The translations under genes and the position numbers were made by a program. From the NCBI GenBank assembly GCA_048938295.1, contig JBHLMI010000001.1, positions 89,449-121,448 of the forward strand: a stretch of 32,000 nt of DNA, in the 5' to 3' direction. The stretch comes from Promethearchaeota archaeon. Its GTDB lineage: Archaea > Asgardarchaeota > Hermodarchaeia > Hermodarchaeales > Hermodarchaeaceae. Positions 6,137 through 29,890 of the stretch are shown piece after piece. The first letter of the stretch is position 1. The number at the start of each line of letters is the position of its first letter. The notes under the pieces were generated by a model. The model was not told where the DNA came from and did no database searches. It saw nothing but the letters and a program-made list of their open reading frames with translations.

Positions 6137-7513
6137 CTACTTTCCCCAATCATTACTAGCCTTAAACAGTGTCCACGGATGGGGAATTATATCTCGAGTA
6201 TACGGAGCTTGCCAAGCATACTCAGGGTGGTCAGAGAAGAATTTCTTTGAATTAAACCGCAAATCGCATGCAGGTCCCCAATGCGCCCACCAGGATCCTG
6301 TTTCACTTAAAGAACTTGTTACAACCTTCGCATCTGTTGCCCCAAAGGCTTCAAACGGACCACATTTCCATTCTTTTAATCCTCGCTCATCATATTCCGT
6401 ATGACCACATATTGTATTTGCTGAGGGTTGTTCCTTGTCCAATGAGACGTCGAAATGGTCGCTTATAATCCGTTGGGCAATCTCGACATCTATTTGGCCA
6501 TTATATTGCTCCATCAGTTGAAGAAGCCGCTGGGTTCTTGATGCGCAAGAATGGGTTGCTTTCTGATTGAAGGAAATTCCTTTGCACTCCGCTCTTACCT
6601 TTTCATCTAATGCCCAATTCGAGCCAATAAAATACCCACTTTTCGTTCGGCGCGTGGCGTATTCATAAATCCCAAGTTCTAACCATCCAATTTCATTAGT
6701 CCTAGCATCTCCCACAAGATACGCATTGGCCCACCCGCCATTGTTCCCTTCGATCATAGTCTTCATCCAACTATCAATCGAATCAGCAAATTGAATTGCT
6801 AGTCTTCCCCGAACAAAATACGGAATTTCGTCTACTTTGAATTTACTAGCCCCTGTGATTGTTGTCTCAGCACACATAATTCCTGCATCATTCATATCCC
6901 AATCTATGGTTGATCCACCAATCGCCCCTGGCCAGGTATGAATGAACATCTTCTTCCCCTCAGAGGGGATTAAGCTCATCATGATATTATAGGTCGTTCC
7001 GATGATATAGGAAAACCACGTGTTGTGACAAAGGACAATCCGCTTGTCTTTTGTTGCCTCTCCCGTTGCAATGAAAGCACTGCAGTGTCCACTTTTTCTC
7101 CGGGCATCTTGGTTTTTTTCATGTTCTTTCGCATAATGACATGAAAGGGTATCACCATAGGCGTTGATTGCGAGTAAGTCCTTCCAGCTGACATCCTTTA
7201 TTCCTCGGAGTCGCACCCCGGCCTCAACAGCCTGAATCTCCTCTTGAAGTTTTTCAGGAGTCATATGCCAGCAGATCTTTTCCGAATCTGCGCGGAACTT
7301 TTTCCAAGGATAATTTTCAGCTTTATCGAGGAACATTCCTGTTTGCTTCACGTTAGCCTGAATCTCGTGAGCAAGCCAATATCCATGTTGAAATCCCATC
7401 TTTTGATAATCGCCAGAAAGATGAAGGCGAATCCACCCGTTCACATCGGTTCGAAAGGAACCACTTAACAGATTTGGAACTTCCTCCTTGCTTGGAAGCC
7501 AAATTGAAGTCAT
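6137..7513 (-). CDS. Ntn hydrolase, phospholipase-B-like / peptidase C45 family
   Basis: 458 aa; GH|CSAFIATG with a candidate nucleophile Cys144, followed by LCHNTW; N-terminal MGFQHGY and LLAINAY. Confidence 0.8.
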   Translation of the reverse strand: MTSIWLPSKEEVPNLLSGSFRTDVNGWIRLHLSGDYQKMGFQHGYWLAHEIQANVKQTGMFLDKAENYPWKKFRADSEKICWHMTPEKLQEEIQAVEAGVRLRGIKDVSWKDLLAINAYGDTLSCHYAKEHEKNQDARRKSGHCSAFIATGEATKDKRIVLCHNTWFSYIIGTTYNIMMSLIPSEGKKMFIHTWPGAIGGSTIDWDMNDAGIMCAETTITGASKFKVDEIPYFVRGRLAIQFADSIDSWMKTMIEGNNGGWANAYLVGDARTNEIGWLELGIYEYATRRTKSGYFIGSNWALDEKVRAECKGISFNQKATHSCASRTQRLLQLMEQYNGQIDVEIAQRIISDHFDVSLDKEQPSANTICGHTEYDERGLKEWKCGPFEAFGATDAKVVTSSLSETGSWWAHWGPACDLRFNSKKFFSDHPEYAWQAPYTRDIIPHPWTLFKASNDWGK

Positions 7514-10671: not shown

Positions 10672-12006
10672 GTGGGGGTTTTACCCAAAATGCCAAAATA
10701 TGAACCCGAAGGATTAGCCATTCGAGAAAGTATTGATCCCGAAGACTATGTAATTGCTACATTCCATATCCGAACACAAGAACCGGATTTGCTTCACATT
10801 GTTGAAGGGCTGTCGATCGAGCAAACCACTGGTACCTGGATTCGGGTACCTCGTGAAACTGATGAAGTCCGCCGCCAGTTTCTAGGAAAAACTATGGGCT
10901 TTTACCGAACACCTGGACCAGATTATACTAATATCATCGCCCAGATTGGTTTTCCAATGGCTAATTTTCTGCCCTCTGTTGCACAACTTATGGCTGCTAT
11001 TGCTGGAAATATTTTTTACGTGAAGAATACAGCCGTTCGCATTCTGGATGTGCAATTTCCCAAATCATTTGCCGCACCCTTTAAAGGTCCAAAATTTGGT
11101 GTCGAAGGTATACGTGAGCTTCTCAAAGCCAAAGAACGACCACTAACTCTTACAATGATTAAACCTTGTGTAGGACTCGAAAGCAAAGTTTTCGCCGAGC
11201 AATGTTATGAAAGTGCCGCGGGAGGAATTGATATCATCAAAGATGATGAACTCATGGAATCTCCCTGTAACTGTCTTCTCGAGGATCGTATCACTGCTGT
11301 TATGGAGGCAATCGATAAAGCTGAATCTGAAACAGGCGAAAAGACTCTTTACACAATCAACGTCTCAGATGATGGACACCGAACATTGGAAAATGCCGAA
11401 AAAATGGTTGAAATGGGTGCCAATGCACTGCATGTCAATTTTCTGGCAACAGGATTAACGATTCTTCGAGATGTGGCAGAAGATCCATCGGTCAAGGTTC
11501 CCGTTCTCGCTCACCCAGCTGGAGCTGGAATGTGGTATCGCGGATTCCATGGCTTCAATTATCCAACAATCGCCAAATTCGTCCGACTATGTGGCGGCGA
11601 TATGTATATTCTTCCAACAAGCCATGGTAAGCTTTTCATGCCTTACTTCGATGAAATTACCTCTGCATTGAACTCCCGAGCTCCCTTCTATCATATAAAA
11701 GCTAATTGGCCAATCGTTGGTGGCGGGGTGTATCCTGGAATGATTCCAGTAAACCTGCATGAACTGGGGACAGACATTATCCTTGGCGCAGGCGGTGGTG
11801 TCCATGCCCATCCCAACGGCTCCACTGATGGGGCTAAAGCCATGCGACAAGCTGTTGACCTCTATATGCAAGGTGGTAATTTCGAAGAAATACCTAAGGA
11901 CATGAAGGAACTGCAACTGGCTGTTGACAAATGGGGAACATACCTTAAACCTCGGGTTGAAGGGTTTTCCACAGAGATAGAACCTGAATTTGGATGGGAC
12001 GGTTGA
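10672..12006 (+). CDS. RuBisCO-like protein (form IV RLP)
   Basis: IEQTTGTW, GPKFGVEGIR, MIKPCVGL, GIDIIKDDELM, GAGGGVHAHP. Spinach-numbered K177, R295, H327 and S379 are replaced (C, P, I, G). The start may be the ATG at 10690. Confidence 0.92.
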   Translation: MGVLPKMPKYEPEGLAIRESIDPEDYVIATFHIRTQEPDLLHIVEGLSIEQTTGTWIRVPRETDEVRRQFLGKTMGFYRTPGPDYTNIIAQIGFPMANFLPSVAQLMAAIAGNIFYVKNTAVRILDVQFPKSFAAPFKGPKFGVEGIRELLKAKERPLTLTMIKPCVGLESKVFAEQCYESAAGGIDIIKDDELMESPCNCLLEDRITAVMEAIDKAESETGEKTLYTINVSDDGHRTLENAEKMVEMGANALHVNFLATGLTILRDVAEDPSVKVPVLAHPAGAGMWYRGFHGFNYPTIAKFVRLCGGDMYILPTSHGKLFMPYFDEITSALNSRAPFYHIKANWPIVGGGVYPGMIPVNLHELGTDIILGAGGGVHAHPNGSTDGAKAMRQAVDLYMQGGNFEEIPKDMKELQLAVDKWGTYLKPRVEGFSTEIEPEFGWDG

Positions 12007-12114: not shown

Positions 12115-13440
12115 TTATTCGCCTTCATAACTAGGTGATATTTTATCTAACGCTTGACGAGCGTGATACTGACAGGTCATTAACTGATCTTCCATCATTT
12201 TAACAAGAGCAGGTGCTGCATCAATCGCCTCAGGACCGAATTTTGCGAGAAGGCGAGCAGCCATTACTCGGGTTACTGGGTCACGATTTGTAACTTGTTT
12301 GGCAAGCTGGGGAATGACTTCTGGAACATCTGTGATGATTTGATTTAATAGGTTGAAACTATCTCGACGAATAAATGGCTCTGCTTTGCGAAGGGGTAAA
12401 TTACGCACTAATGCTTCTACAATTGGGCTAGGAGCTGATTGAAACCTATGCAACGTCTGCGATGCCACTAATCGTAACGCTGGGTGCCGGTGGGACAATA
12501 GTCGAAGCACATTCATCTCAGCGTCTTTTGCAGGTGTTCCTATGAATCCTAACGCTTGAATAGCAAAGATGCCATTCATGGGGTCTGGATCTCTAATACT
12601 TTTGGTAAAGAATTCAATACTGGCTTCATCATAAATAGCCAGACGTGCTAATCCGCTTTGACTAAACAGTCGGAGTTGTGAGTCTTCTGCGTCTTTGACT
12701 GCTCTTAAAGCTTTAATTACATCGCTTGATTTGACTCCGATCATTCCCAGAGCAATTGCAGCATCACGAGCAACGGTTAAATCTGAATCTTGAAGAAGAG
12801 AAATTAGTTTTGGAATAGCATCTTTGGCGGCTGGTCCGATTTTTGCTAAAAGAAGAGCTGAATGCCCTCTTATCTCTACGCTGTCGTTGTTTAGCAGTCC
12901 AATTACTGGTTCCACTGTCGATGCGGCGTCTATGTCAAAAAATCGTAGAGTGACAAGACTTGTTACCACAACCTCTGGATCCTTACTATGCAGGTTTGCA
13001 CGAATGTAGGGAACACTTTGTGCACCTGCCATTAGAAGTCGCAATGTTGCGGTTCGCTGATCCTTCGCTCGATTACTATACAATACCTGAGCCGCTTCGC
13101 GGATTTGTTCATTATTCAGCTCAAGTCGACCAATATCCGCTTCTTCATAGTCAATCATTTCATCTAATGCATCATAAGGATTGATGTGTTCGGTTAGCAA
13201 ATCTATTCTCAATCGTCCTGGCTTTGCCTGCCTCGATTGCCCAATAATGCCTTGAAGCCAGAGGAAAAAACCTAGACTTACGATTATCGCGCCAAAGAAC
13301 AGAATAAGGACACTAGCGACGACACCTATGATCATCACGATAATACCTACAACAGCAAAAGTGACTATAAGCCACCTGCGCCAAGATCTAGATTGCTTCG
13401 ATTTGGTTGACATCGTTGGTAACTCCAGTTTAGCTTCCAA
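12115..13440 (-). CDS. Membrane-anchored HEAT/PBS-lyase-repeat protein
   Basis: 441 aa; two N-terminal TM helices, then repeats of the type D...VR..AA..LG.IG..AK.AIP.L. Confidence 0.85.
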   Translation of the reverse strand: MEAKLELPTMSTKSKQSRSWRRWLIVTFAVVGIIVMIIGVVASVLILFFGAIIVSLGFFLWLQGIIGQSRQAKPGRLRIDLLTEHINPYDALDEMIDYEEADIGRLELNNEQIREAAQVLYSNRAKDQRTATLRLLMAGAQSVPYIRANLHSKDPEVVVTSLVTLRFFDIDAASTVEPVIGLLNNDSVEIRGHSALLLAKIGPAAKDAIPKLISLLQDSDLTVARDAAIALGMIGVKSSDVIKALRAVKDAEDSQLRLFSQSGLARLAIYDEASIEFFTKSIRDPDPMNGIFAIQALGFIGTPAKDAEMNVLRLLSHRHPALRLVASQTLHRFQSAPSPIVEALVRNLPLRKAEPFIRRDSFNLLNQIITDVPEVIPQLAKQVTNRDPVTRVMAARLLAKFGPEAIDAAPALVKMMEDQLMTCQYHARQALDKISPSYEGE

Positions 13441-21998: not shown

Positions 21999-22127
21999 CT
22001 AACGACGCCAAGCTTTCACGCGGTCCCGCTCTTCACGGCTCTTTTGTTGGAACCATGCCCACGGCTTCTCCTCTTTCGAACCATCAGTGTATGCGAGAAT
22101 AATCCTATCAGTACATGAAAAGCAGGG
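21999..22127 (-). repeat. Copy 1 (current, in-gene) of the repeated 3' end
   Basis: Encodes PCFSCTDRIILAYTDGSKEEKPWAWFQQKSREERDRVKAWRR and stop. Confidence 0.96.
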
Positions 22128-23204
22128 ATCAATTGAGGCGAGGGCGATGGGGACGTCGGCGATTTTGCCGCCTTTGAGGAGTTCGATGACGCTGGGGATG
22201 TTGCCGAGGGTGGGGGCGCGGGCTTTGTGGCGTTCGGGTTTGTCGGTGCCGTTGCTGACGACGAAGTGGACGACTTCGCCGCGTGGGGCTTCGAAGGTGC
22301 TGAGGGCTTTGCCGGGTGGGACGCGTTTGGGGGCGCGGACGCTGATGTCGCCGGAGGGGAGGTGGGTGAGCCATTCGATGCAGCTGTTGCAGGCGTCGAC
22401 GGTTTCGAGCATGCGGACGACGACGCGGCCGGCGACATCGCACATATCGGAGGTGCGGATTTCCCAGTGTTTGCCTTCGCTTTCTTTGTAGGGGGTGCGT
22501 GGTTGGGTGTTACGGACGTCCCAGTGGATGTTGGAGGCACGGGCGGTAGGGCCGGTGGCGCAGAGGGCTTTCCCTGTCTCGGTTTCAAGGATACCGACGC
22601 CGAGAGCACGGTCTAGAATCGATTGTTCTTTGAGGATAAGCTTCAGGTAGTGGTTCACGCGGCCGCGGATCTTTTCTAGGCGCTCTACCATACCAGGGAC
22701 TTGGCTCTTCTCAACATCGTGGCGGACACCGCCGATGATGTTATTGGCATAGTTGACGCGGTTCCCACAAATTTCTTCGATGATATCTAGGCTGTATTCG
22801 CGATCCCTCCACGAGTAGTGGAATAAGGTATCCCAGCCGATTTCGTGTCCCGCTACACCGAGCCAGAGGATGTGGCTGTGAATCCGGTTCAGCTCATTCA
22901 TGATGCCCCGAATGTATAATCCCCGGCGGGGCACATCTAAGCCGAGTATTTCTTCAACAGCTTGAACGTAGCATGTGGTATGGGATTGGGAGCAGATACC
23001 GCAAATACGTTCCGCGAGGTAGACATTTTGGCTATACGTGCGGCTTTCAAATGCCTTTTCGATACCCCGGTGTACGTAACCAATACGGGCTGCGACGTCG
23101 ACGACGATTTCTCCGTCGACGGTGAGGGTGAAGTTTTCGGGCTCTTTGAGCGCCGGGTGTTGGGGACCGATGGGAATAGTCATGGTGGTGGGTGTCTTAG
23201 ACAT
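21999..23204 (-). CDS. Group 4 (energy-converting, complex I-like) [NiFe]-hydrogenase large subunit
   Basis: 401 aa; IPIGPQHPALKEP, GYVHRGIEK, L1 ERICGIC, ELNRIHSH, EAPRGE, L2 DPCFSCTDR and a 34-aa extension; all four Cys ligands present. Confidence 0.93.
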   Translation of the reverse strand: MSKTPTTMTIPIGPQHPALKEPENFTLTVDGEIVVDVAARIGYVHRGIEKAFESRTYSQNVYLAERICGICSQSHTTCYVQAVEEILGLDVPRRGLYIRGIMNELNRIHSHILWLGVAGHEIGWDTLFHYSWRDREYSLDIIEEICGNRVNYANNIIGGVRHDVEKSQVPGMVERLEKIRGRVNHYLKLILKEQSILDRALGVGILETETGKALCATGPTARASNIHWDVRNTQPRTPYKESEGKHWEIRTSDMCDVAGRVVVRMLETVDACNSCIEWLTHLPSGDISVRAPKRVPPGKALSTFEAPRGEVVHFVVSNGTDKPERHKARAPTLGNIPSVIELLKGGKIADVPIALASIDPCFSCTDRIILAYTDGSKEEKPWAWFQQKSREERDRVKAWRR

Positions 23205-23354: not shown

Positions 23355-24182
23355 TTAGGTGCTTGGTTTTTTTGATAGACGTGTGTAGCCATAGATAATG
23401 ACCAAAGTGATGGCATAGATAGAGTACAGTATGATGATAGCTAGAAAGTACCATTGTAACTGAATGAGACCTAAGATTTCAACGAATAGGGCGAGTGAGA
23501 AGTTAAAGGACGCGTGGAAAATTATGGCGCCCAAGACGCTTCCATTGGTGTTGTTCACAATCCATGTGATAATGATGGATATGAACACCGTTAACAAGAT
23601 AAAACTTAGAAAATTAGGGATATCAAATTGCCCCTCCTCAAGTCCAATTAACAGATAAATGGGTAAATGCCAGAATCCCCAGAATACTCCAAGGATGAGG
23701 CTTGAACCTACTGCGCTAAACCGTGATTGCAGACGTGGTAATGCGAATCCCCGCCAGCCCAATTCTTCTCCAATGGCACCAATCACCACACTACCAATTA
23801 ACCATAACAAACCAACACTCCAGTCAAAGGGTATATGCGGTCCAGGGAGTGGATTACCCAGACCAATGGATAGCCCTATTGCTAGTAGGGCAATCGCGAA
23901 GGGCGAAAGAGCTGCAAAGTACCAACCAATTCCAATTCTCCATATCCCTAATTTTCCTACAAGTTTCTTAATTCCGTTCCGTTCTTTCAAGACTAATAAT
24001 ATCACGATGAACGCGGCAATACTTGGTGCCCAAGGAGGAAAAAGTTGGAGCACAAAAAGTGGTATTGCGGCCGAAATACCGATTGCCACGATGAAAAGTA
24101 CAAAGGCTAGAATAAAGAACCACAAGACAACAGATCCGCTCGAGGATATCTGTGTTTTAGAGTCGGTCGTTTCAAGTGTCAT
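23355..24182 (-). CDS. CPBP (CAAX/Abi)-family intramembrane metalloprotease
   Basis: 275 aa polytopic; GEELGWRG, FWGFWHLP, IIFHASFN. Confidence 0.92.
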   Translation of the reverse strand: MTLETTDSKTQISSSGSVVLWFFILAFVLFIVAIGISAAIPLFVLQLFPPWAPSIAAFIVILLVLKERNGIKKLVGKLGIWRIGIGWYFAALSPFAIALLAIGLSIGLGNPLPGPHIPFDWSVGLLWLIGSVVIGAIGEELGWRGFALPRLQSRFSAVGSSLILGVFWGFWHLPIYLLIGLEEGQFDIPNFLSFILLTVFISIIITWIVNNTNGSVLGAIIFHASFNFSLALFVEILGLIQLQWYFLAIIILYSIYAITLVIIYGYTRLSKKPST

Positions 24183-24587: not shown

Positions 24588-26984
24588 ATGCCGAAAGTAG
24601 AAGTAGAACAACTTCGTGCACGATGTAAAAGTCGTGAATTTACCTGTAAAACTAGTGCTGAATTATCACTCCTAGAGGGCGTAGTGGGGCAGCCTCGGGC
24701 ACTGAATGCACTGCAATTTGGTTTAGAAATTCCTGATAAAGGCTTTAACATCTATGTGGCGGGCAGCCCCGGCACCGGCCGTACCACTGCGGTGAGCCGC
24801 TACCTAAAAGAGCTTGCAGCCAAGATGCGTGAAGTTCCCTCCGATTGGTGTTATGTGACCAATTATAAGAATCAGTTCAAGCCCACAGCCTTGGAGTTCC
24901 CTGCGGGGATGGGCAAGGTATTTGCCACGAAAATCGATAAGTTCGTTGAAGCGGCACGTACCTCCATTCAACGCATGATGGAAAGTGAAGAATATGCTCA
25001 GCAACGAGAAGAATTGACTAAATCCTATGAAACCCAACGCGATGAGCTCACTGAAGAAATGCGGGCTAAAGCACAAGAAGCTGGATTCGTATTACAGGGT
25101 ACTCAGACTGGGTTACTGATGGTGCCAGTTATCCAAGGAAAACCAGTCACACCCGATATGATTCCCAAACTGAAACCGGAAGTTCGAAAACAAATCGAAG
25201 AAAGCCGTACTGCTTTGGAATCCGAGTTACGTTCTGCCTTTCGAAAACTCCGGTCTCTTGAGCGGGATCTGCGTGAAGAGCTTAAGCAAATGGAAGAGAA
25301 AGGTGTCCGCTTTACCCTTGACCCCTTGATCAATGAAATTGAAGAAGAATTTAAGGGAAATGAGAAAGCAATCGTGTGGCTCAACCAACTCGCTGATGAC
25401 ATGATTGAGAATCTGAACGAGTTGATTGGGCGGGTCCCTCAAGGTCTTCCCCCTGAGCTCCTCCAGCGCTTGCCTTCACCTGAAGATTTTGCTAAACGCT
25501 ATAAAGTCAATCTCATTGTGGACAATTCTGAAACCGAGGGCCCCCCTATTGTCGAAGTGACTAATGCTTCATATGATCGGCTTTTCGGTGTCATTGAAAA
25601 AGAACCTCGCTTTGGCGCCCTGGTAACCGACACAACAATGATTCGCGCTGGTTATATCCACCAAGCTAACGGTGGTTATATCGTTATTCCTGTCCGCGAA
25701 CTACTTTTAGCACCTGCATCATATCAAGCCTTGAAACGTTCGCTTCAAAACGACGAGATTGTTATTGAGGAACCTGCCGCCGCCTTGGGCTTTCTTTCGG
25801 TTAAAACGTTGCACCCAGAACCAATTTCATTGAAAATCAAAGTCATCTTGATTGGTGAACCCCTATGGTATCAGCAGCTGTATCAGCTAGATCCTGATTT
25901 TCGTGAGCTCTTCAAGGTAAAGGCAGATTTTGATACATCAATGGATCGGAACAAAGAGGCTGTTAAAATCTACGGAGATTTTGTATGCACACTCACGGAA
26001 AAAGAAGGTCTTCTTCCCCTAAGTGTAGAAGCCATTGCAGAGGTTGTCGATTTCAGTTCAAGGCTAGCTGATGATCAAAGCAAATTATCGACTCGCTTTG
26101 ATGTTGTCTCTGATATTATCCGTGAAGCGAATTTTTATGCGAAAAAAGATGGAAAGAAGACAATTGAATTATTTCAGATCAAAAAAGCGGTGGATGAACG
26201 CTTCTTTCGATCCAGTTTGTATGCCGAGAAGGTTCGCGAATACATCAAAAAAGGGGTCATTCTCATTGACACCAAAGGCGAAGCAATCGGGCAAATCAAC
26301 GGCTTATCTGTTCTCTCATTAGGTGACTTTAGCTTTGGACAACCTTCACGTATCACTGCAACTGTAGCTCCTGGACCGGGACACGTGATTGACATTGAAC
26401 GGGAAGCTCAACTCAGCGGCCCAATCCAAATCAAAGGTGTCCAAATCCTCACCGGATTCATCCATGAAGCATTTGGACAAGACAAACCGCTTAGCCTGTC
26501 AGCACGGATCACTTTCGAACAAAGCTATGGTGGCGTTGATGGTGACAGTGCAAGCAGCACCGAACTTTATGCTCTACTTTCGGTCCTATCGGGTGTTCCA
26601 ATTCAGCAACGATTCGCCGTGACTGGCTCCGTCAACCAACATGGCCATGTGCAAGCCATCGGTGGAATTAACCAGAAAATCGAGGGCTACTTTGCCGTTT
26701 GCAAGGAAATTGGAATCACCGGTGACCAGGGGGTGCTGATGCCCGAATCTAACGTCCAAAACCTCATGCTCAAAGATGAGGTGATTGAAGCTGTGAAAGC
26801 TGGAAAATTCCATATCTATTCGATTCGAACCATCGAAGAAGGTATCGAACTACTCACAGGCATTCCAGCTGGTCAAAAACAGGCTGACGGAACATATCCG
26901 GCGAACTCCATTTTCGGGCGAGTCGATAAACGGCTCCAAGAAATGGCGAACATCATGCGAGAACATAACCGACCAACTGGATAA
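24588..26984 (+). CDS. LonC-type (S16) protease with AAA-like and coiled-coil domains
   Basis: 798 aa; VGQPRA, GSPGTGRT, coiled-coil insert, GYIHQANGG, DGDSASS (Ser), NQKIEG (Lys). Confidence 0.9.
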   Translation: MPKVEVEQLRARCKSREFTCKTSAELSLLEGVVGQPRALNALQFGLEIPDKGFNIYVAGSPGTGRTTAVSRYLKELAAKMREVPSDWCYVTNYKNQFKPTALEFPAGMGKVFATKIDKFVEAARTSIQRMMESEEYAQQREELTKSYETQRDELTEEMRAKAQEAGFVLQGTQTGLLMVPVIQGKPVTPDMIPKLKPEVRKQIEESRTALESELRSAFRKLRSLERDLREELKQMEEKGVRFTLDPLINEIEEEFKGNEKAIVWLNQLADDMIENLNELIGRVPQGLPPELLQRLPSPEDFAKRYKVNLIVDNSETEGPPIVEVTNASYDRLFGVIEKEPRFGALVTDTTMIRAGYIHQANGGYIVIPVRELLLAPASYQALKRSLQNDEIVIEEPAAALGFLSVKTLHPEPISLKIKVILIGEPLWYQQLYQLDPDFRELFKVKADFDTSMDRNKEAVKIYGDFVCTLTEKEGLLPLSVEAIAEVVDFSSRLADDQSKLSTRFDVVSDIIREANFYAKKDGKKTIELFQIKKAVDERFFRSSLYAEKVREYIKKGVILIDTKGEAIGQINGLSVLSLGDFSFGQPSRITATVAPGPGHVIDIEREAQLSGPIQIKGVQILTGFIHEAFGQDKPLSLSARITFEQSYGGVDGDSASSTELYALLSVLSGVPIQQRFAVTGSVNQHGHVQAIGGINQKIEGYFAVCKEIGITGDQGVLMPESNVQNLMLKDEVIEAVKAGKFHIYSIRTIEEGIELLTGIPAGQKQADGTYPANSIFGRVDKRLQEMANIMREHNRPTG

Positions 26985-27043: not shown

Positions 27044-29890
27044 ATGTCTTCTAGCGGAGAATCTCAATTAAAACAAGAGGGTATTCACGACCCACACAGC
27101 CAGACCCTAGAGAAACTAGCCCAACAACTACACGCTGATCTGGAAAATGGGCTCATGAGCGGAGAAGCCCAGAAGCGGTTGGACATTTTTGGGCCAAATC
27201 AACTCCCAAGGATTCGTGGCTCCTTCTGGCGAGTCTATCTGGCTCCCATTCTAAATGGGTTAATTCTCATTTATCTAGTCGCTATTTGCTTGATGGCCGC
27301 TCTCGTGCTAATTTTTAATACCCCTGGTGTAGAGCAGGCCCTTATCTGGGTTGTAGTCATTGTATTCAATGCCATCCTGGCCATCGTTCAACAGTATCGT
27401 GCACAAAAGAAACTGGAAGCTCTCCAATCTCTGACGGCAGATACAACGGTGGTCATCCGTGAAGGTCTGAAGAAGGAAATTAACACCAAGGACGTGGTTC
27501 CTGGTGACATTGTTGTTCTTGCTCAAGGAGACAAGATTCCGGCGGACGGACGGCTCCTTGAAGCCAACCATCTGTCGGTAGTCGAAGCCTCACTCACCGG
27601 TGAGAGTGCCCCAGTAGAAAAAGAAGCCAGTGCAAAGCCATTACTGAGAGATATCCCGCTACATGAACGGTCGAACATGGTTTATAGTGGAACCTATATC
27701 GCAACAGGATCAGGACGCTGTCTTGTGGCCAATATCGGTGAAAGCACTGAAATAGGTCAAATAAGTGAAGGGCTTGAAACCCTCAACACTGGTGAAATAC
27801 CACTCCGACGCAAGGTCAATCGCTTGGCGGTTTATCTAGGTGTAGCTGCTCTCTTCTTAGGAATTTTAGGATTTGTCTCCTACATCGTTTTTCCCCGGCC
27901 CGTTGACGGGATTTTCCTAACGCTACCAGAGCTTGCGATGGAAGCCATCATCAACGCAATGACAGTAGCACCAATCAATATTCCACTTCTCACCACGATC
28001 ATCCTTCTCACTGGTGTGCTGGGAATGGCTACCCTAGGTGTTATCGTCAGTGACCTAACTGCAGTCGAAACTATTGGTCGTGTCAGTATCATTTGCACTG
28101 ACAAAACAGGAACTCTGACACGGAGCGAAATGATGGTAAGCCTAGTATGGGATGGCTCAGATCTTTTCCATGTAACTGGCGAAGGCTATAGTCCCAAAGG
28201 GGCAATTCAGTTGGTTGAGGAGAAAAAAGGCTTTGAAAAACCTATTGAGGTTGAAAATTACAATACCCTGTCATTACTCATACGCGTTGGTGCACTAAAT
28301 AACGATGCACAAGTCGTCCCAAACGAAGAATCGGATTTTGAAAACCAGTGGAAGGTCATCGGAGATCCTACAGAAGCCGCACTCATTGTCCTCCTTCGAA
28401 AGAGCGGTATCCCTGAAAGTTCTCTCTACTCCGCCTATCAACTGGAACAAGATTATCCTTTCGACTCTCGGTTGAAACGCATGACCCGTGTCTTCCGAAA
28501 TCCCGAAGGCGACTACATCGCCTTTGTAAAAGGTGCGACCGATGTCCTCCTCGAGCGATCAACTGCAATCGGTGATGATCGCACCAGTAAGCGACTAGCA
28601 AAGAAGCAAATCAAGGAAATCAGCGATTACGCAGACACCTATGCTAAAGGGGGATACCGTGTCCTCTCCCTTGGAATCCGGTATCTAGATGAATTGCCCT
28701 CAGGAAAAGGTATGACTCCCCGAGATCAGATAGAACAACAACTTACCTATCTGGGCTTTGTCTGTATTGTTGACCCACCACGCGAAGGAATTCGAGATGC
28801 TGTCGAAGAAGTCGCAAATGCAGGTATCCGCACCGTCATGATCACAGGTGATGCTGCGGGGACGGCTGAAACCATTGGCCGACAGCTTGCCATTGTCAAC
28901 GAGATGGACCTCGTTGTTGAAGGAAAAGACGCTCCTGCCATCAGTGACGATGACTTCAAGAGAGTAAGTGTATTCGCTCGCGTCAATCCTGAAGATAAAC
29001 AGGTAATCGTCGAACGGTACCAAAAGGCGAAACACGCAGTGGCGATGACGGGTGACGGGGTTAATGATGCGTTGGCACTAAGCATGAGCGATGTCGGTAT
29101 TGCTATGGGGATTACGGGCACTGATGTGGCCAAAGAAGCATCGGACTTGATTATCGCTGATGATAGCTACAACTCAATCGTTGAAGGCGTTCGGCAAGGC
29201 CGTGGGCTTTTTAACAAAATCCGCACAATGATTCTGTTCTACATCGCCATCAATGTGGCAGAGTCCATCATCTTCTTCGCAACCTTCTACCTTGGGCTCC
29301 GCTTCTTGACCTCCTGGCAACATATCTTCCTGGCTATCTCCAGCCACACTTGGCCAGGACTTGCCCTCACCTTTGACCGCAATCCCAAATATGTCATGGA
29401 TGAACCTCCCCGAGATACAGAAGGTGTCATAACTCGACCCTTAGGCACTTACCTTATTATCAATGCAATCCTCATATTCGTCGGGGCCGCAATCGCTTAT
29501 TTTGGCACTCTCTATGCTTTTCTTCCTGGAACAATTCCAGGAGATCCTCTCAATATTATGAAAGCTCAGATCATGACTATATGCGTCCTAGTCATAACCG
29601 AATCTCTAATGATGATAAGTATTCGTCGCATCAATCGATCTGCCCTTCAGTCAATTCGAGACGAAAGTTACTGGTTCATCTATCTTATGCTTGCGTTCGT
29701 ATTCCTCATGGTCTTGGTAGTCATGTACAGTCCCCTAATCAATGAAGTTCTTGCAGGAATTGGTATCAATTTCTACTTCGTTCCACTTACTACGCTGGAT
29801 TGGCTCGTTGTTATCGCCCTTGCAGTACCCGCAGTTGTCGGAATGGAAGTGATAAAATGGGCGGCTAGACACCGTGAAATCCACTTCTAG
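27044..29890 (+). CDS. P2-like P-type ATPase with non-canonical ion-binding residues
   Basis: 948 aa; LTGES, DKTGTLT, GDPTE, KGA, DPPR, MITGD, TGDGVND; TM4 motif is APINIP. Confidence 0.93.
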   Translation: MSSSGESQLKQEGIHDPHSQTLEKLAQQLHADLENGLMSGEAQKRLDIFGPNQLPRIRGSFWRVYLAPILNGLILIYLVAICLMAALVLIFNTPGVEQALIWVVVIVFNAILAIVQQYRAQKKLEALQSLTADTTVVIREGLKKEINTKDVVPGDIVVLAQGDKIPADGRLLEANHLSVVEASLTGESAPVEKEASAKPLLRDIPLHERSNMVYSGTYIATGSGRCLVANIGESTEIGQISEGLETLNTGEIPLRRKVNRLAVYLGVAALFLGILGFVSYIVFPRPVDGIFLTLPELAMEAIINAMTVAPINIPLLTTIILLTGVLGMATLGVIVSDLTAVETIGRVSIICTDKTGTLTRSEMMVSLVWDGSDLFHVTGEGYSPKGAIQLVEEKKGFEKPIEVENYNTLSLLIRVGALNNDAQVVPNEESDFENQWKVIGDPTEAALIVLLRKSGIPESSLYSAYQLEQDYPFDSRLKRMTRVFRNPEGDYIAFVKGATDVLLERSTAIGDDRTSKRLAKKQIKEISDYADTYAKGGYRVLSLGIRYLDELPSGKGMTPRDQIEQQLTYLGFVCIVDPPREGIRDAVEEVANAGIRTVMITGDAAGTAETIGRQLAIVNEMDLVVEGKDAPAISDDDFKRVSVFARVNPEDKQVIVERYQKAKHAVAMTGDGVNDALALSMSDVGIAMGITGTDVAKEASDLIIADDSYNSIVEGVRQGRGLFNKIRTMILFYIAINVAESIIFFATFYLGLRFLTSWQHIFLAISSHTWPGLALTFDRNPKYVMDEPPRDTEGVITRPLGTYLIINAILIFVGAAIAYFGTLYAFLPGTIPGDPLNIMKAQIMTICVLVITESLMMISIRRINRSALQSIRDESYWFIYLMLAFVFLMVLVVMYSPLINEVLAGIGINFYFVPLTTLDWLVVIALAVPAVVGMEVIKWAARHREIHF

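Follow-up and report, generated by a model that had tools for sequence, protein, structure and literature searches.

A largely Asgard archaeal family of P2A-like pumps with a probably altered transport site

What a P-type ATPase transports depends on a small number of transmembrane residues and, to our knowledge, each of the distinct ligand sets that have been characterised (P1A/B, P2A-D, P3A/B, P4, P5A/B) carries a different substrate. In the window analysed here, a 32,000-nucleotide stretch of the genome of a Promethearchaeota archaeon, one gene encodes a P-type ATPase with Ile at the position of Glu309 in the calcium pump SERCA, which raises the question of what such a protein transports. 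Knowledge of its substrate would give a textbook pump family a further specificity class, and would inform ion and metal homeostasis in the Asgard archaea, organisms whose physiology is very hard to study.

Pump architecture and ion-site residues

As read from its sequence, the gene is that of an intact ATP-driven membrane pump with all catalytic motifs in place. ORF calling and translation yielded a full-length reading frame (27044-29890, + strand) without internal stops or frameshifts, and placed every motif at the coordinates given here and below:

27044..29890, + strand: complete P-type ATPase gene encoding 948 amino acids and 10 TM helices (ORF, translation, five P2-type Pfam domains, AlphaFold2, Foldseek)
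27596..27607, + strand: TGES dephosphorylation motif of the A domain (translation; G186 and E187 invariant in the multiple alignment)
28100..28114, + strand: DKTGT phosphorylation motif with D353 (translation; invariant in the multiple alignment)
29051..29068, + strand: GDGVND of the P-domain hinge; the next residues are ALAL, in place of canonical APAL, and L677 is a family marker (translation, family/canonical contrast)

[quoted passage not shown] The AlphaFold2 model of the protein (mean pLDDT 86.5, pTM 0.79) breaks the TM4 helix at residues 309-311, and its top Foldseek matches are SPCA1, SERCA and LMCA1, with TM-scores of 0.74-0.78. The same P2A Ca2+-ATPases are the best sequence matches (Listeria LMCA1, 386 bits; SPCA1/PMR1, 378 bits; SERCA, 318 bits), and have in common with the protein the 10-TM fold, the A, N and P domains, the TGES, DKTGT and GDGVND motifs, the TM4 P-x-x-x-P and the TM5 N/E pair. 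In contrast to them, it has Ile for E309, Asn for G310, Ala for N796, His for D800 and a DALAL rather than a DAPAL hinge.

These equivalences were taken from a HMMER alignment of the pump to SERCA2, not by eye, and the alignment reproduced the by-eye register of the original prediction, in which E309, N796 and D800 had become I, A and H and N768, E771 and E908 had been kept. The residues concerned are as follows:

27245..27256, + strand: TM1 PILN (P68-N71), in place of canonical QF[K/T][D/S] (family/canonical alignment); we take it to correspond to SERCA Q56-D59
27389..27394, + strand: TM2 Q116-Q117, in place of canonical Q-E (family/canonical alignment); presumably SERCA Q108-E109
27971..27985, + strand: TM4 PINIP, with I311 at SERCA E309, N312 at G310 and the second Pro retained (translation, conservation, model)
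28019..28036, + strand: LGMATL, where TM4 ends on the cytoplasmic side; matched to SERCA RRMAKK in the original prediction (translation)
29252..29263, + strand: TM5 N737 and E740 (NVAE), the retained SERCA N768 and E771 (HMMER alignment)
29333..29335, + strand: TM6 A764 at the SERCA N796 position (HMMER alignment)
29339..29356, + strand: TM6 SSHTWP, with S767 at T799 and H768 at D800 (HMMER alignment)
29600..29605, + strand: TM8 E853-S854, E853 being the retained SERCA E908 (HMMER alignment)

Ca2+ site II, made up of the Glu of TM4 PEGLP and the Asn, Thr and Asp of TM6, is thus represented by I311, A764 and H768, with S767 alone conserving T799. Other members of the family share the same loss of site II residues, so that the idea of a dismantled site II beside preserved site-I-type residues has held up both in the HMMER mapping and in family conservation. 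On the cytoplasmic side, the acidic residues of the predicted entry funnel are neutralised, with TM1 QFxD replaced by P-I/L-F/L-N and TM2 Q-E by Q-Q.

Conservation and taxonomic spread of the family

To judge from the tree, the family is a large, old and mostly Asgard-archaeal branch of P2A-like (calcium-pump family) pumps. It comprises 115 homologues and about 35 further clusters at 50% identity, and was monophyletic in a tree of 43 rows (SH-aLRT 100, stem length 0.48). The clade was placed among prokaryotic PEGLP pumps with a backbone support of only 80-88, in a tree that leaves eukaryotic P2A-D, P4 and P5 references aside; curated HMM scores and a control pump from the same genome were used for comparison with the eukaryotic P-type classes. 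Within the clade, the pump of the window adjoins Hod- and Odin-type sequences. It carries all the marks of what we treat as an unnamed Asgard PxNxP/His family: P-hydrophobic-N-hydrophobic-P in TM4, His at the D800 position of TM6, N..E in TM5, E in TM8, Q-Q in TM2 and a position in the clade with SH-aLRT 100.

Across 115 full-length homologues with 46-69% identity, PINIP, N737, E740, H768 and E853-S854 are invariant. The MPINIPLLTT stretch as a whole does not vary from P310 onward; the residue before it is M in 112 of the 115 and A in the pump of the window. Conservation persisted in 40 more diverse family sequences (32-70% identity), in which H768 was found 39 times, against Asp in all 16 canonical pumps compared. 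E740 was present in 40/40 (and in 56/56 sequences of the alignment), N312 in 37/40 and N737 in 36/40, while E853 was present in 38/40 against an even split of E (8) and Q (8) among the canonical pumps. In TM1, P68 and N71 occur in 37/40 and 35/40 family sequences, where canonical pumps have Q (15/16) and, at the fourth position, D, S or G; in TM2, Q117 occurs in 35/40, where all 16 canonical pumps have E. Residue 311 is I, V, F, W or L in the same 40 sequences, and position 764 varies among Y, T, F, V, A and I. An unbiased contrast of family and canonical pumps returned only 13 discriminating positions in the whole protein, and these include P68, Q117, N312 and H768.

The basic end of TM4 behaves differently. 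The predicted change from RRMAKK to LGMATL applies to this pump and its close relatives but does not describe the family, most members of which retain MAKKG or MARKG, the loss of basic residues being limited to the subclade of the pump. Among the 115 homologues, position 330 is K in 56, R in 31 and G in 17, and position 331 is K in 65, R in 17 and V in 15.

When the TM4 motif was written as a DNA pattern, it matched in 259 of 400 genomes of the host phylum (Asgard), with no matches for a reversed-pattern control, and the gene is often present in two or three copies per genome. All 91 pattern matches in named genomes proved to be real pumps, nearly all of them Asgard, and the motif start lay exactly 43 residues before DKTGT in each of the 90 ORFs long enough to tell (the one remaining ORF is truncated), in agreement with the gapless alignment from TM4 to the phosphorylated Asp proposed originally. 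Named relatives come from Hod-, Thor-, Hermod-, Odin- and Promethearchaeota, as expected for the Asgard-like host that had been envisaged, and include a member in the cultured Promethearchaeum syntrophicum MK-D1; beyond Asgard, the taxonomic survey that had been called for found the family only sporadically, in TACK archaea. Substitutions unique to one sequence, an outcome named in advance as fatal to the prediction, were not what we found: the substitutions are invariant across a deep clade.

Drift or sequencing error as the source of the substitutions was also considered, and is ruled out by the conservation in 115 homologues.

One match carried the label Candidatus Aerophobetes. Its tandem arrangement and downstream luciferase-like gene are as in Asgard loci, and it forms a short branch beside a Hodarchaeote sequence; we interpret it as a contig that was binned wrongly or transferred very recently.

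We found no description of this pump family in the literature on Asgard P-type ATPases, on its motif or on the origin of P4 and P5 pumps. A transporter census refers to Asgard orthologues as putative Ca2+ ATPases (PMC7997004), and the family goes without mention in the Palmgren 2023 review (PMC10654040).

Class models, paralogues and gene neighbours

Among family-level models, the P2A Ca2+-pump models scored highest, yet the pump lies below every equivalog cut-off: 431 bits against 703.4 for TIGR01116 and 433 against 798.3 for TIGR01522, the SERCA- and PMR1-type models. It nevertheless has the P2-type 10-TM fold and the TM5 N..E of P2A Ca2+-ATPases. The P3A model TIGR01647 gave 302 bits (cut-off 615.5), with His768 rather than Asp in TM6, and P1B models gave 151-224 bits. 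With the P4 model TIGR01652 (cut-off 431) the pump scored 98 bits and the host's own canonical Ca2+ pump 89; with the P5 model TIGR01657 (cut-off 618) the values were 217 and 232, and TM4 reads APINIP in place of the P5-type PP(E/A)LP. Because the control Ca2+ pump scores alike, the pump shows no special affinity to P4 or P5.

This bears on the Ile itself, which had been taken as a pointer to P4 flippases. The two do have Ile directly after the TM4 Pro (PISL and PINIP), but P4 pumps have DGET and GDGAND where this pump has TGES, GDGVND and the second TM4 Pro, confirming a P2 rather than a P4 scaffold. Moreover, a hydrophobic residue at the E309 position is equally a feature of P3A H+-ATPases (plant AHA2, fungal Pma1 and archaeal relatives), and the host itself encodes a P3A proton pump with TM4 IPVALP (TIGR01647, 1024 bits against 615.5), so the pointer does not stand. 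P3A pumps also resemble this pump in having a single central protonatable residue in TM6. The host P3A paralogue has T, R and G where the pump of the window keeps N, E and E (TM5 YRIAETVRVLF, TM8 FLKLAVAGHMT), and falls outside the family clade in the tree. The host genome also encodes a SERCA-type pump (727 bits against 703.4). Since SERCA-type and P3A pumps coexist with it, the gene is a non-redundant paralogue. Of 91 genomes sampled from the phylum, 75 likewise carry a canonical-grade P2A-like pump, and these include all 7 sampled from the genus of the host.

The gene immediately upstream is the following:

24588..26984, + strand: LonC/LonB-like protease gene, 59 bp upstream of the pump gene and on the same strand (Pfam LonC_helical, AAA_32, LonB_AAA-LID, Lon_C)

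This order is repeated at the loci of two close (Hod-type) relatives and is absent beside Thor-type orthologues, and the LonC-like gene probably has no functional link to the pump. The subclade of the pump has the LonC-like gene upstream and a glycosyltransferase and an M29 peptidase downstream; Thor-type orthologues neighbour an S8 peptidase and a winged-helix, UFL1-like protein, and other subfamilies neighbour TFIIB-like genes and GNAT. The loci of the subclade, the Thor-type orthologues and the other subfamilies together held no neighbour common to the whole family and none indicative of a substrate.

Possible substrates

We favour, with some confidence, a working P-type ATPase with a rebuilt transport site that offers one site to a small inorganic cation other than Ca2+. 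Such a pump would run a normal phospho-aspartate (Post-Albers) cycle. With the ligands of SERCA Ca2+ site II gone (E309 to I/V/F/W/L, N796 to a variable non-Asn residue, D800 to His), the retained site-I-type N737, E740 and E853 would be joined by the new, near-invariant N312 of the unwound TM4 and H768 of TM6. From homology to SERCA, we infer that these five residues converge on one cavity, giving a putative single site of two Glu, two Asn and one His at which the cation would be bound before its release across the membrane. An Asn/Asn/Glu/His/Glu set without the TM4 Glu or the TM6 Asp matches no characterised P-type set, and here it is fixed throughout a deep clade that most genomes of the phylum carry, the phylum being the one among archaea that is closest to eukaryotes.

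Under this single-site reading, our leading guess, a tentative one, is a borderline divalent transition metal of the Mn2+, Fe2+, Co2+, Ni2+ or Zn2+ class. Histidine seldom ligates Ca2+, Na+ or K+ and is a transmembrane ligand in the P1B-3 and P1B-4 metal pumps. These (CPH and SPC/HEGxT types) are, as far as we know, the only P-type pumps described with a transmembrane His among their ion ligands, and they offer a possible analogy for a borderline-metal site, although with 8 TM helices and a CPx-type TM4 they are only distantly related. In terms of coordination chemistry, five conserved polar ligands speak for a metal ion bound in multidentate fashion and against a bare proton. Against a metal, the pump is without a cytosolic metal-binding domain and without a Cys or Met entry site, and all transition-metal P-type pumps that we know of are P1B, except for Mn2+ transport by SPCA. 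Within the same single-site reading, H+, or else a monovalent ion (K+, Na+ or NH4+, for example), is conceivable but somewhat doubtful, H+ being the second guess. The His-Glu pair could alternatively serve proton counter-transport only, or act as a built-in counter-ion.

Could the protein still pump Ca2+, or Ca2+ and Mn2+, through a single site-I-like pocket of N737, E740, S767 and E853, with His and Asn in place of the lost carboxylates? Its best scores are to P2A Ca2+-pump models and to the solved LMCA1, SPCA1 and SERCA, all but one of the five SERCA site-I residues remain, and public annotation pipelines label its relatives Ca2+-transporting ATPases. We nonetheless consider this rather unlikely, given the missed equivalog cut-offs, the neutralised funnel acids and the canonical Ca2+ pump that occurs alongside it in the host and in most of the relatives sampled. 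The single-site Ca2+ pumps known so far (LMCA1, SPCA, PMCA) rely on site II, which is the one destroyed here, and D800, which belongs to both sites in SERCA, is replaced by His in 39 of the 40 family sequences. A loss of transport altogether, leaving a sensor or regulator or a gene in slow decay, appears extremely improbable: the sole point for it, an indirect one, is that canonical ion ligands are missing, and it has to contend with intact catalytic motifs, with transmembrane polar residues invariant over very deep divergence, and with a gene that 259/400 genomes of the phylum carry, frequently as two or three copies, free of stops and frameshifts.

A substrate other than an inorganic ion, whether an organic cation such as a polyamine or a lipid head-group, would be the flippase-like idea of the original prediction taken at its broadest. 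It would parallel eukaryotic P5B and P4 pumps and would be in line with the hydrophobic residue at the E309 position, with an entry path stripped of acidic residues and with aromatics facing the pocket (Y/F at 764 in 17/40 and at 733 in 34/40 family members). A GNAT acetyltransferase gene 58-85 bp downstream of the pump at 12 loci would also fit, but it belongs to two other subfamilies; in the subfamily of the pump studied here, residues 764-769 are small and polar, and there is no GNAT gene near its pumps in the 32-kb window or the regions of four relatives, nor a recurring one in its loci of about 8 kb. This substrate type is unlikely, since the P4 and P5 models score the pump no better than the same-genome Ca2+ pump, its motifs are those of P2 and not DGET, GDGAND and PISL, and P4 and P5 structures are absent from its best 50 Foldseek matches. 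Nor did a membrane or CDC50-like partner recur beside the gene in 80 loci, a comparison qualified by the fact that a P4A partner need not be linked. The original prediction of an uncharacterised pump stands and altered specificity is probable, while a non-cation substrate, though possible, is argued for by none of the results. That PxNxP/His pumps more generally carry a non-classical substrate (an organic cation such as a polyamine, NH4+ or a lipid head-group) along an acid-depleted and partly aromatic-lined pathway is a quite improbable idea; if true, the closest relatives of eukaryotes would supply an archaeal precedent for a shift from ions to large substrates that we know of so far only in eukaryotic P4 and P5 pumps.

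Returning to the favoured single-site cation pump, family members are ordinary single-subunit pumps, one of them from the cultured MK-D1, and the question can be put directly to test by expression and assay. Positions 764, 766, 767 and 769 vary between subfamilies, and the substrate may accordingly differ among paralogues.

Rebuilt ion site of a P2-type pump

The pump is encoded by a single unbroken open reading frame of 948 codons. Its five Pfam domains (Cation_ATPase_N, E1-E2_ATPase, Cation_ATPase, Hydrolase and Cation_ATPase_C) are those of a P2-type cation pump, and it carries a full set of catalytic motifs, each checked by translation. The TM4 motif PINIP lies exactly where the original prediction had placed it.

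Features of the pump gene (window coordinates)
27044-29890, +: pump gene
27596-27607, +: TGES
27971-27985, +: PINIP, TM4
28019-28036, +: LGMATL, cytoplasmic end of TM4
28100-28114, +: DKTGT
29051-29068, +: GDGVND

With this catalytic machinery intact, the protein would be expected to run an ATP-driven E1/E2 cycle. An AlphaFold2 model made from 56 aligned sequences was confident (mean pLDDT 86.5, pTM 0.79) and contains ten long membrane helices; TM4 is interrupted at residues 309-311, a break that solved pumps also show. SPCA1, SERCA and LMCA1 were its top structural matches (TM-score 0.74-0.78), with Na,K-ATPase next; the first 50 included neither P4 nor P5 pumps.

The substitutions had originally been mapped onto SERCA by eye. 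When residues 700-948 were aligned to SERCA2 using HMMER, the same mapping was recovered (SERCA1 numbering): N737 and E740 correspond to N768 and E771 in TM5; A764, S767, H768 and P771 to N796, T799, D800 and P803 in TM6; and E853 to E908 in TM8. No gaps interrupt the segment between TM4 and the phosphorylated Asp: DKTGT starts exactly 43 residues past the TM4 motif in 90 of 90 family reading frames that extend that far (91 matches in named genomes, one of them cut off). This places I311 where SERCA has E309, and N312 at the position of G310. In SERCA, site II is formed by E309, N796 and D800 with TM4 backbone carbonyls, and site I by N768, E771, T799, D800 and E908. Compared with SERCA, the pump has lost all three side chains of site II and kept four of the five of site I, the shared Asp having become His, and it has gained an invariant Asn (N312) in the unwound part of TM4.

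Conservation and taxonomic spread

We searched 5.8 billion proteins and took the best 120 hits, whose named sources were all Hod-, Thor-, Hermod- or Promethearchaeota; 115 full-length sequences, 46-69% identical to the query, entered the counts. PINIPLLTT is present in all 115, preceded by Met in 112 (Ala in the query), and N737, E740, H768, E853-S854, N71, N109 and Q116-Q117 are likewise kept throughout. The substitutions are thus not unique to this sequence, and they are not drift. Replacement of the basic RRMAKK stretch by LGMATL is real in the query; it is a feature of its subclade rather than of the family, since two of these positions are mostly Lys or Arg in the 115 homologues. Three basic residues that most family members have near the cytoplasmic end of TM4, namely K330, K331 and R336, are lost in the query subclade alone, being replaced here by Thr, Leu and Ser (28019-28036 and 28049-28051).

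An exhaustive HMMER search over 1.84 billion cluster representatives added about 35 clusters at 50% identity with TM4 P-[I/V/L/F/W]-N-[I/L/F]-[P/V] and the TM6 His. The weakest family members scored down to 488 bits and canonical PEGLP pumps started at about 510, so that the ranges overlap. Across 40 diverse family sequences, E740 was kept in 40, H768 in 39, E853 in 38, N312 in 37 and N737 in 36; the E309 position was hydrophobic in all, and the N796 position variable (Y, T, F, V, A or I). In 16 canonical pumps the E309, G310, N796 and D800 columns read E, G, N and D. An unbiased whole-protein contrast between the two groups yielded only 13 separating positions, including P68, Q117, N312, H768 and, in the hinge, L677 (DALAL in the family versus DAPAL). 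Together with N71, P68 and Q117 neutralise acidic residues where TM1 begins and TM2 ends; we take these to be SERCA E58, D59 and E109, which line the cytoplasmic ion entry.

At the DNA level, a degenerate pattern for P-h-N-h-P-h-h-x-T-h-x-L-h-T-G matched at least 119 stretches across 185,579 prokaryotic species (one genome each). Among the matches listed, 91 of 91, in 80 loci, were real pumps; they make up at least five subfamilies, which vary around an invariant core. Named records among them were nearly all Asgard: Thor, Hod, Hermod, Heimdall, Odin, Atabeyarchaeia and Loki-type, with Promethearchaeum syntrophicum MK-D1 and Ca. Harpocratesius in the last group. The named exceptions were one Nitrososphaeria, one Methanomethylicus and one Candidatus Aerophobetes record (L031), the only bacterial-labelled match listed. 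The tandem arrangement of L031 and the luciferase-like gene downstream are typical of Asgard loci, and in the tree it lies on a short branch beside a Hodarchaeote sequence; it is probably a misbinned Asgard contig. Cluster look-ups extended the family to Odin- and Korarchaeota and returned no eukaryotic or bacterial names.

Within the host's phylum, 259 of 400 genomes (65 of 90 of high quality) contain the strict TM4 pattern, and a reversed-pattern control had no matches. Families differ widely: two have the pattern in 0/31 and 0/12 genomes, others in 122/135 and 16/18. Many genomes hold two or three copies.

Relation to other pumps and predicted substrate

A maximum-likelihood tree (LG+C20, quick search), built from 74 sequences, placed all 43 rows of the family in one clade (SH-aLRT 100, stem 0.48) among prokaryotic PEGLP pumps, with weak backbone support between PEGLP groups (80-88). 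The window's genome also has P3A-like and P3B-like paralogues, which fell outside the clade. Against curated models the query scored 433 and 431 bits on IIA, 394 on IID, 358 on IIB, 330 on IIC, 302 on IIIA, 285 on IIIB, 217 on V and 98 on IV, under the cut-off on every one. As a control, the genome's own canonical PEGLP pump reached 727 bits, above cut-off, on the SERCA-type model. Since this control scored comparably on the P4 (89 bits) and P5 (232 bits) models, the query shows no particular affinity for either flippases or P5 pumps. By these profiles it is not flippase-like, and the original interpretation, which had linked the TM4 Ile to flippases, is partly right. The gene encodes a conserved variant of the P2-type pump whose ion site has been rebuilt, in an Asgard archaeon, and a literature search found no paper describing the family or its motif.

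Eight P-type ATPases are encoded in the window's genome (2.5 Mb, 91.6% complete). Besides the query there are three P1B pumps, a P3A proton pump (TM4 IPVALP; 1024 bits, above cut-off) and one pump each of the PQLLP, PEGLI and SERCA-type PEGLP kinds. A canonical-grade P2A-like pump was found in 75 of 91 sampled genomes of the phylum, among them 7 of 7 of the query's genus, the window's included; the TM4 pattern occurs in 13 of 14 other searched genomes of the genus as well as the window's own. This coexistence argues for different jobs.

From the loss of site II, the largely kept site I and the new TM4 Asn, we infer a single predicted ion site built from E740, E853, N737, N312 and H768. Five polar ligands fixed over deep divergence suggest that it may bind a metal ion in multidentate fashion rather than a bare proton. 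Histidine coordinates Ca2+, Na+ and K+ poorly and Mn2+, Fe2+, Co2+, Ni2+ and Zn2+ well; His-Glu pairs also occur in known proton carriers. On these residues, the putative substrate is probably a small inorganic cation other than Ca2+, for which a transition metal would be a possible candidate and H+ or a monovalent ion a slightly less likely one. That the protein is still a Ca2+/Mn2+ pump would fit the retained site I side chains and the SPCA1-like fold; set against the His, the lost site II and a canonical pump in the same genome, it seems unlikely. Transport of an organic cation or lipid, to which a hydrophobic residue at the E309 position might point, is also doubtful given the P4 and P5 scores. 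A non-transporting protein is very improbable for a sequence with every catalytic motif in place. The pump merits a biochemical test but does not amount to a novel type of machine.

Gene neighbourhood

The neighbours of the pump gene are not informative on its function.

Other genes in the window
6137-7513, -: phospholipase-B-like protein
10672-12006, +: RuBisCO large-subunit homologue
12115-13440, -: HEAT-repeat protein with a weak adaptin-N match
21999-23204, -: membrane-bound [NiFe]-hydrogenase large subunit / complex I 49-kDa subunit-like, a few kb upstream of the pump
23355-24182, -: Rce1-like CAAX-type intramembrane protease, a few kb upstream of the pump
24588-26984, +: LonC/LonB-like protease, 798 aa (LonC_helical, AAA_32, LonB AAA-LID, Lon_C), ending 59 bp upstream of the pump gene

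The LonC-like gene/pump order is syntenic only in close (Hod-type) relatives. Thor-type orthologues have a gene for a ~650-aa winged-helix protein 9-15 bp past the pump gene (L011:8922-10895, L012:8880-10814), with helix-turn-helix-like stretches and a weak UFL1-like sub-domain match to E3_UFM1_ligase (1.5e-10), and a divergently transcribed subtilisin-like S8 peptidase gene upstream; neither gene adjoins the pump in the window. In many Loki-type genomes two subfamilies lie head to tail, their TM4 matches about 3 kb apart (loci L016, L025, L032, L053, L063, L064, L068, L069, L081, L090 and L091), in the order PINLP with TM6 GI[V/A]HSLP, then D-x-x-P[I/L]NIP with TM6 ITLHxFP. In 17 of 18 such loci, a gene for a TFIIB-type zinc ribbon protein lies 51-177 bp upstream of the tandem pumps (the distance in L076 is 1167 bp), with a TFIIB-repeat paralogue farther upstream and a GNAT acetyltransferase 58-85 bp downstream.
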